From the NCBI GenBank assembly GCA_964429275.1, contig CAYSBJ010000001.1, positions 62,001-126,000 on the forward strand: 64,000 bases of DNA. The letters run 5' to 3'. A model generated the notes under the pieces. It was not told the DNA's origin. It made no database searches and was given only the letters and a program-made list of their open reading frames with translations. This document shows positions 17,595 through 21,859 of the stretch, piece by piece (within the stretch, counting starts at the first letter, position 1; each line of letters begins with the position of its first letter). The stretch is from an uncultured Pseudomonadota bacterium. Lineage in GTDB: Bacteria; Babelota; Babeliae; Babelales; JAUPTZ01. The position numbers were made by a program, and so were the translations under genes.

Positions 17595-18365
17595 ATGTAT
17601 CGCATCACTGTATCGCTCATTATCCTTGCGTGGATCCAGATGGCTCTCCCAAACGCTCAACCATCACGTGCACCACGGCTCTTAGTTCTTGATACACCCA
17701 TCACAATCGGGTCAAATACAACACTCTGCATTCAAGACACGGTCATCATCAACCTCGCACAGTTTCCATTTATTCTCGCTGATGAGACAAGTACCGTTAG
17801 TTTAGAAAATTGCAGCATAGTCCTTAGCGATGACTACTACTGGAAAAAGGGAAAGCTCAATATAAAAGGGATTTGCCACATTTTAGGGCCACACACTTGG
17901 CACCAACAAATTCCAGGTGCCTGCCTGATTTCCCACAACAGCACGCTTATTCTGGGCAGTGGGATAACTTTCTATTATGAACCATCCGAATCAAATCAGG
18001 CCGGCATTTTGTTTAACGATCAATCATCAACGCTGCAACTTAGCAGCAGTCATTTACGCAGCGGAGACCACGGCCTCACTCTTACTATTGGTACAGTACG
18101 CATTGAGGGGCCCTGCTCTGTGCATGCTGAAAACAACACCCCACAGCGCGGCATCTTCTTCGGATCAGGCACTTCATACAAAGAAAACATAACACTAGAG
18201 CTTCTTGGGCCCGAAGCGCGACTTACCGTCACTGGACCGTATTTTCAAGAAAGAAGCCGGGGATCATTTACCCGCAAGGCATTCAAGTTTTGCGGGAACA
18301 CAGTTCTTGCCTGTGCGCTCTGTGCCGGAATCATGACAATAATGACTAAGCTCACGCAAGATTAG
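17595..18365 (+). CDS. Exported beta-solenoid-like protein with C-terminal hydrophobic anchor
   Basis: Signal peptide; recurring STLxL/TLxI strands; terminal VLACALCAGIMTIM. Confidence 0.65.
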   Translation: MYRITVSLIILAWIQMALPNAQPSRAPRLLVLDTPITIGSNTTLCIQDTVIINLAQFPFILADETSTVSLENCSIVLSDDYYWKKGKLNIKGICHILGPHTWHQQIPGACLISHNSTLILGSGITFYYEPSESNQAGILFNDQSSTLQLSSSHLRSGDHGLTLTIGTVRIEGPCSVHAENNTPQRGIFFGSGTSYKENITLELLGPEARLTVTGPYFQERSRGSFTRKAFKFCGNTVLACALCAGIMTIMTKLTQD

Positions 18366-18413
18366 GTCGTCTCAATCGAGCAATCCAGAGATTTAAATAA
18401 GTTTTTGTTTTTC

Positions 18414-18442
18414 TTGACACCGGTATACCACGTTGATACTCT
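18414..18442 (+). promoter_or_regulatory. Sigma70-type promoter
   Basis: TTGACA-17 nt-TACTCT with extended -10 TG. Confidence 0.7.
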
Positions 18443-18446
18443 TCGC

Positions 18447-18560
18447 GTCATCTTGCAGGAGCAATAGCACTTCTGTGAAACGTCCCTAAATGAACAATGC
18501 TTCACGTATTGTTCGCCCCCCCAACCCTCCGACTTTCCCAAGTTGGAGGGTTCTTTTTTT
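18447..18560 (+). ncRNA. Candidate ~110-nt three-hairpin small RNA
   Basis: Own promoter, stems at 18453-18478 and 18491-18515, terminator 18523-18560, no meaningful ORF. Confidence 0.55.
18523..18560 (+). terminator. Intrinsic terminator
   Basis: AACCCTCCGACTT-TCCC-AAGTTGGAGGGTT followed by CTTTTTTT. Confidence 0.85.
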
Positions 18561-18577
18561 AGTTATCCAAAATACAC

Positions 18578-20110
18578 TTAAGATAGGAGAGCATGCCCGC
18601 CGTCTTTTGGTTTAGTAAACACCAAAATAAACTCATCGGCCGCACGACGAATGGCTGTTTCAACGAGCTCTGATAATCCCTCAGCACTCGCCACCGCGTG
18701 GTATACCTGCGGATAAACCTCAAGAAGATACGAAACAAACTGGCGCGAAAACGTATTAATTTGCAAAATATCCAGCCGATCAAAAAAGTTTTCTTGTAAC
18801 AAGAAAAGAAAAACTATCTCCTCTGCTTGAGTGTACGTCACATGCAAGTCTTGCTTGAGCAACTGTACCGCACGCTCCCCACGATCAATAGCGCGTTGAC
18901 TGGCAGCATCCAACTCAGAACCAAACTGCAAAAAAGCCGCCAGTGCTTCAAACTGGGCCAATTCAAGCTTCAGCGAACCAGCAACTTTTTTCATACTTTT
19001 AATCTGTGCTGCCCCGCCAACCCGCGAAACAGAAAGACCTATACTAATAGCTGGCCTAATTCCATTATTAAACATATTGGTATCAAAAAAGACCTGCCCA
19101 TCTGTTATTGAAATAAGGTTCGTCGCAATGTAAGCAGAAATATCATCACCCTGCGTTTGTATAATAGGAAGCGCAGTCATCGACCCGCCACCATGGTCAT
19201 CGTTCATTTTACCCGCACGCTCAAGAAGTCGTGAGTGTATATAGAAAATGTCTCCAGGGTACGCTTCACGCCCTGGCGGGCGACGAAGTAAAAGAGACAA
19301 CTCTCGATACGCAATTGCGTGATTAGATAAATCATCGTACACAATCAATACATCTTGCCCCTTATCCACGAAATACTCTCCAACCGTACAACCAACGTAC
19401 GGTGACAGAAACTGCTCTAATGCCGTCGCCTTTGCGCTCGCATCAATAACAATGGTATAGGATAGTGCATCATACTGCTGTAAAAGATGGATCATTTTTG
19501 CAGTATCAGACTGTTTATGCCCAATAGCTACATAGATACACACAACGTTTTTGCCTTTTTGATTGATAATCGTATTCAGTGCAGTTGTTGTTTTACCAGT
19601 ACTGCGGTTACCAATAAGCAACTCACGCTGCCCTTTCCCAATTGGAATCAATGCATCAATAACCAAACACCCAGTTTCAAGTGGCTCATTCACTGGTGTA
19701 CGAGCGATGATTCCTGGCGCAGTACGCTCAATAGGACGCAGCTCACTGGTTACCACATCTCCTAATGCATCAAGGGGTTCGCCGGAAGCGCTCACCACGC
19801 GGCCAATCAAACCGTCTCCTACTGGCACACGGAAAGAATTCCCGGTTCGACGTACAATTTCTTGTTCAAAAACTTCTTCTGCCTTATCAAGCAAAATAAT
19901 AGAAACGTAATCTTCATCAAGATCCATCACAATTCCACGGGCACCAGATTCGAAGAGCACAAGCTCACCAAAAACAACGTTCGTTAAACCGTATACCTTA
20001 CATATACCGTCGCCAACCCCGATAACTGTACCAATTTCTTCTATTTCTGCCTGCGCCTTAGGGGTAAGGGCTTTTTCTATAAGCGAAATAACGCCAGCTG
20101 TTTCTTTCAT
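18578..20110 (-). CDS. atpA: F-type ATP synthase subunit alpha
   Basis: PIGKGQRELLIG, GNRSTGKT, RRPPGREAYPGD, SITDGQ, SVSRVGGAAQ. Confidence 0.97.
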   Translation of the reverse strand: MKETAGVISLIEKALTPKAQAEIEEIGTVIGVGDGICKVYGLTNVVFGELVLFESGARGIVMDLDEDYVSIILLDKAEEVFEQEIVRRTGNSFRVPVGDGLIGRVVSASGEPLDALGDVVTSELRPIERTAPGIIARTPVNEPLETGCLVIDALIPIGKGQRELLIGNRSTGKTTTALNTIINQKGKNVVCIYVAIGHKQSDTAKMIHLLQQYDALSYTIVIDASAKATALEQFLSPYVGCTVGEYFVDKGQDVLIVYDDLSNHAIAYRELSLLLRRPPGREAYPGDIFYIHSRLLERAGKMNDDHGGGSMTALPIIQTQGDDISAYIATNLISITDGQVFFDTNMFNNGIRPAISIGLSVSRVGGAAQIKSMKKVAGSLKLELAQFEALAAFLQFGSELDAASQRAIDRGERAVQLLKQDLHVTYTQAEEIVFLFLLQENFFDRLDILQINTFSRQFVSYLLEVYPQVYHAVASAEGLSELVETAIRRAADEFILVFTKPKDGGHALLS

Positions 20111-20112
20111 AA

Positions 20113-20664
20113 CTACTCCTGTGACTCTCTCTGTTGCTGCAGTGTTCGTATGGTCCTGGCAGCACTATGCTCCCAGTAATACAGTGGGGTTTCAATTTTA
20201 ATACCAGCGATTAAAGCACGATCATTTCGATACATAAATCGCAATGTACCGGGAATTTTTGTTGCTACCAATGCCTCTATCTTGCCCTTTCCATCAGCAT
20301 CTAATGGATGCGAAGTACTAACGATAACTTCATGAATGCAATGCATTTTTTTATATTCTTCCTGTAGCATCTCTAAGATGCTGCCTAAAAGATGGAATTC
20401 TTTATAACGCATCACTGCACGCAAAAGTTGCATAAGCTGCCACGGCAAACCAAGACGAGCGGACAATTCATCAATAGCGCTGTGCTTTTCATCAACATGC
20501 GCACTACTTAGTTCAAGCAAATGGAATACAAGCGGGTTCGCCCGACCGCAATCACGAAGCATCTTTATCCCCGCAAACAATTCAGCCTCCGCCATTTCAT
20601 GAGTGCGCAAAAAAGCACGTGCGAAATTACGTGCCTTCTGTTTTCTTTGCGTAAGACGATTCAT
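20113..20664 (-). CDS. atpH: F-type ATP synthase subunit delta (divergent)
   Basis: ARNFARAF, V-S-T-S-HPL and DRALIAGIKI; position between b and alpha. Confidence 0.8.
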   Translation of the reverse strand: MNRLTQRKQKARNFARAFLRTHEMAEAELFAGIKMLRDCGRANPLVFHLLELSSAHVDEKHSAIDELSARLGLPWQLMQLLRAVMRYKEFHLLGSILEMLQEEYKKMHCIHEVIVSTSHPLDADGKGKIEALVATKIPGTLRFMYRNDRALIAGIKIETPLYYWEHSAARTIRTLQQQRESQE

Positions 20665-21172
20665 ATAATGTATCCTTTTTTTCAACCCCGGAAAGCTGTT
20701 TTTGTGCCCGAGACATGTACTGAGGGAAAAGCGCATCGGCCTCTTTTTCAGCCTCATGCAAAGCTTCCGTCAAAACTTTCTCTACCGTCTCCGCCACCAA
20801 TCGATCCCGCGCAACAGCTTGATGCTGCAACGCCGCCCGCACATTCATACTTTCTGCACGCTCGGCAATAATTCGCTCACGCTCGCGCTGCTTATTACTA
20901 CAAATCAAATGCCACGCTTCAAGCTTTGCCGTCAGCAAGGCTATTTGTTTTTCCTGCTGAAGGAATTGCGTAGCAAGCTGTTTCTTTTTTGACACTAAAA
21001 TCATATGCTTCTCTTGCAGTGCAAACCAGCGCTCATCTGATTCCTGACGACGCTTTTCCAAGTATGGTATTACATACTTAACAATCGCGCCATACGCTTT
21101 AATACAAAAAAGAACAAAGAAAGAAAGATTTGTCGCAATACCTATATAAAACCAATAACTAGCTTCCTGCAT
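20627..21172 (-). CDS. atpF: ATP synthase subunit b
   Basis: N-terminal TM plus long coiled coil; operon position. Confidence 0.65.
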   Translation of the reverse strand: MQEASYWFYIGIATNLSFFVLFCIKAYGAIVKYVIPYLEKRRQESDERWFALQEKHMILVSKKKQLATQFLQQEKQIALLTAKLEAWHLICSNKQRERERIIAERAESMNVRAALQHQAVARDRLVAETVEKVLTEALHEAEKEADALFPQYMSRAQKQLSGVEKKDTLYESSYAKKTEGT

Positions 21173-21527
21173 GCAGCGAATCCTCCAGTTTCTTCCTAAA
21201 TGCGGAGAGCTCTTCCGATGAAACAGGCCGCAATATAACGCGAGCAGTACTCTGCGGATTAAGCGCGATTTTTACAGCGTCATTAGCTAACTGGACCTTA
21301 ACATCCTGCTGAAATTGAACCAATTGCAATGCCTTCTCCGACTGAAAGTTGTCCACATCGACTTGTTTGAGAGTTATTTCTTCATTCAGACGACGCTCTT
21401 CGGCTTTCTGCTTAATAAGCGCATCGATTACCGGATCAAATACCATACGACGCAAAGCATAATAAACAACTAAAAAGTTTATTACTTGGATCAGTAGCGT
21501 AAGATTAAACTCTATGAGGCTTTTCAT
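21159..21527 (-). CDS. ATP synthase subunit b' (short)
   Basis: NLTLLIQVINFLVVYYALRRMVFDP is a typical b/b' N-terminus. Confidence 0.75.
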   Translation of the reverse strand: MKSLIEFNLTLLIQVINFLVVYYALRRMVFDPVIDALIKQKAEERRLNEEITLKQVDVDNFQSEKALQLVQFQQDVKVQLANDAVKIALNPQSTARVILRPVSSEELSAFRKKLEDSLHAGS

Positions 21528-21551
21528 GATGCACTATCTTTTTTCTGTGCT

Positions 21552-21800
21552 CTACGCACGAAACAACAGCATCAACGCGATAATAAACGCATAGATGGAT
21601 GATGTTTCGGCTGTTATTAATGCAAACATCATTGTACTGAAGATCGCCCCATAGCTTCCAGGGTTGCGGCTGATACTTTCACAAGCCTTACCTCCAATAT
21701 ACCCTTGACCAAGCGACGGTCCAAGCGCTCCAATGCCCATGCATATCCCAGCACTAAGGTTTGCCGCTACTTTTGCCCAGTTTATTGCTTCCATTTCCAT
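21552..21800 (-). CDS. atpE: ATP synthase subunit c, Na+-type signature
   Basis: GPSLGQG, RNP and AETSSIY; AGGAG RBS before ATG 21800. Confidence 0.93.
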   Translation of the reverse strand: MEMEAINWAKVAANLSAGICMGIGALGPSLGQGYIGGKACESISRNPGSYGAIFSTMMFALITAETSSIYAFIIALMLLFRA

Positions 21801-21859
21801 ATATGCTCCTGCTGTTAAAGTAACATTCAATATATTAGATGTTACCAGTAATGGAGCAT

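Follow-up and report, generated by a model that had tools for sequence, protein, structure and literature searches.

A phylum-wide, apparently undescribed small RNA of Dependentiae with unpaired C-rich tracts, often encoded convergently to atpA

The stretch of DNA analysed here (64,000 nucleotides, referred to below as the window) carries at positions 18414-18560 of the + strand a compact series of signals: TTGACA, a 17-nt spacer, TG-n-TACTCT, three hairpins, a run of seven C residues and an intrinsic terminator. The -35 hexamer TTGACA is located at 18414-18419, and the extended -10 element TG-A-TACTCT at 18434-18442 (TG at 18434-18435, TACTCT at 18437-18442). A T-rich tract resembling an UP element (18400-18413) is seen in the sequence directly 5' of the -35 box. 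The string ttttTttC directly before TTGACA is the consensus of 121 aligned homologous promoters, and this tract could serve as an UP element by function. From the geometry of the promoter, the transcription start is predicted at 18449-18450, 7-8 nt past the -10 box.

The predicted transcript begins with hairpin 1, a 5' domain (18453-18478) in which 18453-18461 is folded against 18470-18478 and which is specific to the genus. It is followed by single-stranded tract 1, GUCCCUAAAU (18482-18491), which is conserved across the family. Hairpin 2 (18492-18514) possesses a 9-bp stem, formed by GAACAATGC (18492-18500) and GTATTGTTC (18506-18514), and a variable loop. Single-stranded tract 2, G-C7-AA (18515-18524, with C7 at 18516-18522), corresponds to the family pattern R-C5-7-Y-AA. 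The intrinsic terminator (18523-18560) comprises a 13-bp stem (18523-18535/18540-18552), the loop UCCC and a U7 tail at 18554-18560. The conserved core of the family covers 18478-18560 (83 nt) and is described by covariance model R1 (84 positions). All these features are on the + strand. A terminator scan called the terminator on this strand; the same consensus scan did not call the promoter, TACTCT matching TATAAT at 3 of 6 positions. An earlier note on this DNA, made from the letters alone, had reported TTGACA-17-TACTCT with an extended -10, hairpins 1 and 2, the C7 run and a terminator. The promoter is indeed present at 18414-18442, the other elements were all found, and the predicted fold is identical.

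Downstream, on the opposite strand, the convergent neighbour is atpA, encoding ATP synthase alpha (18578-20110, - strand; Pfam PF00006, PF00306 and PF02874). It is the last gene of its operon here, and its stop codon lies 17 nt beyond the U tract. The ATP synthase gene order in the window (18578-21830, - strand) is c subunit (21552-21830), two b-like ORFs, delta (Pfam OSCP), alpha; the operon ends with atpA, and beyond it there is no gene for gamma, beta or epsilon. Many relatives possess, between atpA and the RNA gene and on the strand opposite to the latter, a conserved ORF of ~140-150 aa. This lipoprotein-like ORF lies ~80-600 nt downstream of the RNA, has the lipobox-like N-terminus ...SCGKK/CGRK... 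and the motifs GYNVYR and GP.S.I, and is absent from the equivalent position in the window.

The promoter of the RNA gene appears to be near-consensus and of the sigma-70 type, and the predicted transcript would end at the gene's own intrinsic terminator; this reading is well supported. The strict motif TTGACA-N14-TGnTAnnnT is found once in the three large contigs of the window's genome (C1-C3), at the RNA gene, with ~0.8 occurrences expected from composition, and this single occurrence is not significant alone. Support for the promoter is instead provided by its conservation across homologues: the strict motif TTGAC[AT]-N14-TGnTAnnnT, with TTGAC[AT] at the 17-nt spacing, precedes the core by no more than 115 nt at 127 of 134 distinct homologous loci, as against 0 matches in the 339,378 remaining bases of these loci. 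Among homologues, CCCUAA follows the -10 box at a distance of 16 to 77 nt (mode near 27-35), and the 5' leader is therefore variable. The 122 transcripts that were modelled, each running from the predicted start to the U tail, have a median length of 107 nt (range 83-155).

Two further properties of the assembly were noted. Contigs C4-C7 (4-13 kb) have 60-70% G+C versus 46% for the three large contigs, and they are probably contamination of the bin. On contig C1, outside the window, a crude ORF caller found one open frame of 8,608 codons at about 9175-35001.

Folding of the 113-nt RNA from 18449 gives a minimum free energy of -39 kcal/mol, and the predicted shape corresponds to the hairpins listed above. 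Shuffled sequences reach a mean of -19.7 kcal/mol (z = -7.48), and 0 of 200 dinucleotide shuffles are as stable. Covariation, proposed as a check in the earlier note, was assessed on two alignments. Alignment A1, from which model R1 was made, consists of 30 cores aligned by MAFFT. When the two-helix structure is imposed on A1, pairing holds in 98.8% of cells, and both-sided changes are seen at 7 of 20 pairs. Neither the observed pairing nor the count of both-sided changes is matched by any of 500 column shuffles, and sliding the partners by 1-3 columns reduces pairing to 36-48%. The second alignment contains 100 model-aligned sequences (85 distinct); it is fitted to R1 and is thus biased towards the structure, and in its 85 distinct sequences 99.6% of cells are paired and compensatory changes occur in 9 of 20 pairs, with both conserved helices involved. 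Hairpin 2 is paired in 99.7% of cells, has 5 of 9 pairs changed on both sides and carries a loop of 3-10 nt. In the terminator, 99.6% of cells are paired over the conserved 11 bp, and pair 59-80 is UA in 39, CG in 36 and UG in 10 of the 85 distinct sequences.

The functional strand is the + strand, as follows from two observations. Of 85 sequences, 74 have G-U at pair 62-77, a combination that turns into an A-C mismatch on the - strand, and only the + strand has a U tail. This last point had been claimed beforehand and is borne out, and the G-U pair likewise fits the + strand alone.

Two sets of unpaired letters in the core are invariant or close to it: (G)UCCCU-AA before hairpin 2 and R-C(5-7)-Y-AA after it. 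CCCU-AA of tract 1 is invariant in 85/85 distinct sequences, and a U precedes it in 82/85. In the 122 modelled transcripts tract 1 has a median probability of 0.90 of being unpaired, and tract 2 one of 1.00; UCCCUAA is unpaired in 92% of these transcripts and the C5-7 run in 99%. Stem bases are near-constant as well. The base of hairpin 2 (GAA/UUC) and the terminator segment CCCU.C/G.AGGG are invariant or nearly so, and the 5' arm of the terminator, CCCUYC, prolongs the C-rich stretch of tract 2.

Other parts of the molecule are changeable. The terminator loop reads GUCCU in 22/85 sequences, GUUCU in 10/85, and TCCC or TCCCCA in only 4/85. The suggestion that UCCC is unpaired both in the linker and in the terminator loop can accordingly be kept for the linker, where the motif is conserved throughout the lineage; in the loop it is confined to the genus and is no trait of the family. 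As for hairpin 1, its place is taken in a same-genus homologue by a hairpin of different sequence, and in other families an A/U-rich leader of variable length is present instead. Judged from the aligned homologues, then, the element is wider than the earlier note had described, being a phylum-wide family with hairpin 1 and the UCCC loop outside its conserved core.

Three alignment columns, 44 (the letter before the C run), 52 (the last letter of the run) and 59 (a stem position), split perfectly between 49 distinct sequences with A/U/U and 36 with G/C/C. An A-U or G-C pair between columns 44 and 52 could close a C loop; the pattern may also reflect two clades. The split looks like two clades and would be unusable as independent covariation.

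With 18400-18570 as BLASTN query against 60 relatives, 38 showed a match to the 3' ~80 nt (73-90% identity, E < 1e-6); the hairpin 1 region at the 5' side was matched only in a same-genus genome. Model R1 extends this distribution. The window's genome holds a single copy, scoring 94.2 bits at the locus (E = 1.4e-21). R1 matches 136 of 151 genomes of the order, and 118 of the 124 that are at least 90% complete. In a second sample, for which class-level and phylum-level searches drew identical genomes, all of the same order, 143 of 151 genomes are matched and 8 are not. As a rule there is one strong match per genome (E from 6e-10 to 5e-25); in a few genomes there is also a weak second match (E around 1e-3). 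At least five good genomes (91-96% complete) lack the RNA, which is therefore not indispensable. In the five R1-negative genomes examined, atpA is present with no such RNA beside it, and no diverged copy was found within 1.5 kb of atpA in R1-negative genomes (best E = 0.55).

An exact degenerate pattern searched over all species genomes revealed at least 119 loci. Among these, at least 52 are named as Dependentiae, TM6, Babeliales, Babelota, Babeliaceae, Chromulinivoraceae or Vermiphilus pyriformis, at least 39 are labelled just 'bacterium', and at least 28 bear proteobacterial MAG labels. When named Dependentiae loci were compared with those of the relatives, the sequences were identical in 5 of the 7 pairs tested. 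The lineage to which the family belongs is therefore Dependentiae (TM6/Babeliales). One relative's contig contains two core pattern matches ~10 kb apart, the only clear second copy among the matches listed. That the RNA represents a phylum-wide and apparently undescribed family, whose conserved core spans the linker, hairpin 2, the C run and the terminator stem, is well supported.

The surroundings of the gene were compared at 47 distinct loci with 1.5-kb flanks. The nearest long downstream ORF is convergent at all 47; it is atpA at 34, and the genes at the other 13 include those for an M23 peptidase, a C11 peptidase, a secretin and an HhH-GPD protein. On the upstream side the genes are of many families, occupy both strands and vary from genome to genome. 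Any one frame through the core is open in at most 54 of 134 homologues, and the indels of the hairpin-2 loop are not multiples of three. Sequence features generally expected of a trans-encoded sRNA were found, namely its own promoter and terminator, no conserved frame and compensatory changes. The same-strand gene directly downstream that a cis leader or riboswitch would have is absent at 47/47 loci. The view of the element as a standalone RNA, put forward in the earlier note, is upheld by the promoter conserved at 127/134 loci, the element's own terminator and the convergent downstream gene at every locus. It is almost certain that 18414-18560 contains a real, conserved and independently transcribed non-coding RNA gene of ~110 nt.

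The RNA could act through its two always-unpaired C-rich tracts (GUCCCUAA and the run of 5-7 C), which would pair in trans with G-rich stretches of mRNAs. The chief sites would be Shine-Dalgarno regions of the AGGGA or G-run type. Such pairing could block translation initiation or alter mRNA decay, and it would need neither Hfq nor ProQ. Pairing of the C-rich tracts with G-rich start sites, in the manner of RsaE/RoxS, is tentatively regarded as the likeliest mechanism. To the whole explanation, the non-coding RNA gene together with this pairing mechanism, we would assign a probability of about 0.45.

The genome of the window (97.95% complete) was found to contain no Hfq, ProQ or CsrA; Rho is present. 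Upstream of its start codons AAGGA and AGGAG are enriched, and GGGGG is observed 36 times versus 4 expected and AGGGA 31 times versus 5.6. A run of at least five G is situated just upstream of the start in 51 of 961 self-called genes. Signal-peptide-like N-termini are encoded by 21 of these 51 genes versus 217 of the 910 others (Fisher p = 0.0075, with both the classifier and the starts being crude). Runs of 6-8 G occupy the Shine-Dalgarno position of several signal-peptide genes without Pfam assignment, for example at C1:408949, C1:444857, C1:380167 and C2:57884. The G runs at signal-peptide genes are possible partners of the C run; alternatively they could be phase-variable tracts.

Duplex energies were computed for both tracts against the 961 self-called start regions, with 814 internal windows as a control. 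Tract 1 reaches -12 kcal/mol or lower at 38/961 start sites versus 23/814 internal windows, and tract 2 reaches -16 kcal/mol or lower at 53/961 versus 34/814, counts in which start-site pairing is favoured by a gene-start rule that rewards G-rich upstream motifs. Start sites hardly outdo gene interiors in predicted pairing, and any enrichment is at most marginal. The best 20 annotated target candidates, which include RuvX, DnaG, CTP synthase, ABC transporters, ankyrin/LRR proteins, a T2SSE ATPase and unknowns, are without a common functional theme. An extended complement of either tract was found nowhere else in the genome, and a fuzzy search matched only the RNA gene's own antisense strand.

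Several individual candidates were set aside. Near-matches in front of ATG belong to ORFs of 24-74 aa that are not real genes. Two secreted-protein genes carry UAGGGR followed by a G run, an order that is wrong for colinear pairing. The gene pyrG, considered as a conserved target, was followed in 41 genomes; it was present in 25, and 24 start regions were examined. Its G run is absent even in two same-genus genomes. For the lipoprotein-like neighbour gene, 0 of 8 start regions are G-rich. Another ncRNA cassette family of this genome was examined for G runs and repeats, and no sign of an interaction with the RNA was seen. Complementarity of the tracts to 16S and 23S rRNA, examined in two relatives, is no better than that of shuffled tracts; the window's genome itself contains no rRNA. 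The proposal of a trans-acting sRNA that pairs with Shine-Dalgarno sequences has therefore fared unevenly: the sRNA gene stands, the enrichment of predicted pairing at start sites in its own genome is at most marginal, and the pyrG candidate is not conserved.

Alternatively, the RNA could be a housekeeping molecule that acts through a protein or RNP partner, as a sponge, cofactor or scaffold, and not by pairing with mRNAs; the partner would read the C-rich single strands together with the two conserved stems. One argument is the nature of the conservation. The 83-nt core, stem bases included, is near-constant across families whose atpA proteins are only ~55-59% identical, and such conservation of stem sequence is unusual for a purely base-pairing sRNA and hints at a partner. 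The gene is also single-copy and present in ~95% of high-quality genomes, and the target scans yielded nothing convincing. Its promoter points in the same direction: a perfect -35 plus extended -10 motif occurs in the genome at the RNA gene alone, and the same strict motif fronts a tRNA gene in one relative. In that relative, which lacks the RNA, this is the sole genome-wide match of the strict motif (- strand), which suggests that the motif marks promoters of stable-RNA strength in this lineage. Within R1-negative genomes the motif leads to a tRNA gene and to an ORF. No obvious partner has emerged, however. The candidate binders Hfq, ProQ and CsrA are those not found in the genome. Rho prefers C-rich RNA, yet it occurs in 5/5 genomes without the RNA as well as in 5/5 with it, so that there is no phyletic link. 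The rRNA comparison in two relatives likewise gave no better than the shuffled tracts, and some complete genomes do without the RNA. A protein- or RNP-mediated role is considered less likely than pairing with mRNAs, yet it is a serious rival to it.

A further possibility is that the element belongs to the convergent ATP synthase operon as a cis module, through antisense overlap, transcriptional interference, a shared terminator or a 3'-end stabiliser. Convergent atpA at 34/47 loci from many families would agree with this, as would the atpA stop 17 nt past the U tract in the window and the ability of the hairpin to form on the - strand transcript too. However, the RNA is equally conserved at the 13/47 loci with another convergent gene, and in many relatives the ~140-aa lipoprotein-like ORF and ~450 nt intervene between atpA and the RNA. 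The U tract serves the + strand only, the common G-U pair becomes a mismatch on the - strand, and five genomes have atpA with no such RNA beside it. A strong promoter that is conserved indicates that the product itself is needed. A cis role tied purely to the atp genes is very improbable in view of the conserved promoter, the variable upstream genes, the assortment of convergent downstream genes and the missing conserved frame.

It is also conceivable, as a highly improbable case, that this lineage-defining RNA of obligate intracellular bacteria does not regulate mRNAs and instead targets a protein or a G-rich nucleic acid foreign to the usual sRNA repertoire, in the most extreme form after export to the protist host. 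The invariant CCCUAA (18484-18489) and CCCCAACCC (18519-18527; CCCUAACCCU in the other clade) resemble the C-strand repeats of eukaryotic telomeres, a likeness that may simply follow from C-rich composition.

Least credible of all is the absence of an independent gene, i.e., a 3' UTR of the ORF at 17595-18365 (named in the earlier note as the finding that would overturn it), a leader or riboswitch of a downstream gene, or a small coding gene: the upstream ORF does end 49 nt before the -35 box and mechanical ORFs do overlap the element (18490-18615, +, 41 aa; 18362-18541, -, 59 aa), but these readings are excluded by the promoter conserved at 127/134 loci, upstream genes that differ and at several loci lie on the opposite strand, a same-strand downstream gene at 0/47 loci, and the lack of a conserved frame.

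Dependentiae are a widespread phylum whose members live inside protists and are almost all uncultured. To our knowledge, very few regulatory sRNAs are conserved across a whole phylum. An RNA that is kept almost letter for letter in ~95% of good genomes, behind the best promoter of the genome, is probably central to physiology. With the alignment, the structure and the covariance model in hand, the family is ready for curation. The RNA could serve as a marker of Dependentiae and, in the few members that can be cultivated, as a defined starting point for RNA biology. If it is true that it acts on G-rich start sites without Hfq, the logic of RsaE/RoxS would have arisen independently in a distant lineage.

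The RNA was compared with known families and with the literature. Rfam 15, whose use as a check had been advised, gave 0 matches at the gathering score in the whole window and 0 in 20 homologous loci. Relaxing the threshold to E of 10 for 18300-18650 produced chance-level matches only (PyrR, Spy779816, sX13 and others), the best with E = 0.21. Searches of the main articles of the open-access literature yielded no description of this RNA, nor of any regulatory RNA of Dependentiae. The earlier designation of the RNA as undescribed thus holds for Rfam 15 and for the literature searched. The parts consulted of the Chromulinavorax destructans genome paper name only ffs, rnpB and ssrA as ncRNAs (PMC6561590).

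With SRP RNA, 6S RNA, tmRNA and RNase P RNA the element shares one strong copy per genome, a phylum-wide distribution and a strong promoter. Unlike them, it has no Rfam match in the window, and its size and fold, with two short hairpins, do not fit. SRP RNA was rejected as an identity: the genome's sole RF00169 match lies on contig C2 (120759-120846, 50.1 bits), and the window has none.

A closer likeness is to RsaE/RoxS (RF01820), an sRNA of ~100 nt that likewise has a promoter and a terminator of its own, leaves several conserved C-rich tracts unpaired and is conserved more widely than is usual for regulatory sRNAs. Its C-rich regions pair with G-rich Shine-Dalgarno sequences, with no clear need of Hfq in the portions of the reports consulted (PMC4409812; PMC2790875). 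The differences are that RF01820 is absent from the 10 matches obtained at E up to 10 for 18300-18650, that RsaE/RoxS belongs to Bacillales, another phylum, and that the C tracts of the present RNA are otherwise arranged, in linkers beside conserved stems.

The sRNA sX13 of Xanthomonas (RF02232) resembles the present RNA in combining hairpins with C-rich motifs. It sets C-rich loop motifs against G-rich mRNA motifs and is Hfq-independent. The match to its model, however, reaches 13.8 bits versus a gathering score of 50 (E = 2.6), and the C tracts here are placed in linkers instead of hairpin loops. In RepG of Helicobacter pylori, a C/U-rich region, located in the terminator loop, pairs with a homopolymeric G repeat in an mRNA leader. 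Comparably, the C5-7 run could pair with the G-run start regions of the window's genome, whereas the terminator loop is not conserved in the Dependentiae RNA. The RNA is a member of none of these families, and its closest functional analogues are the C-rich sRNAs RsaE/RoxS, sX13 and RepG.
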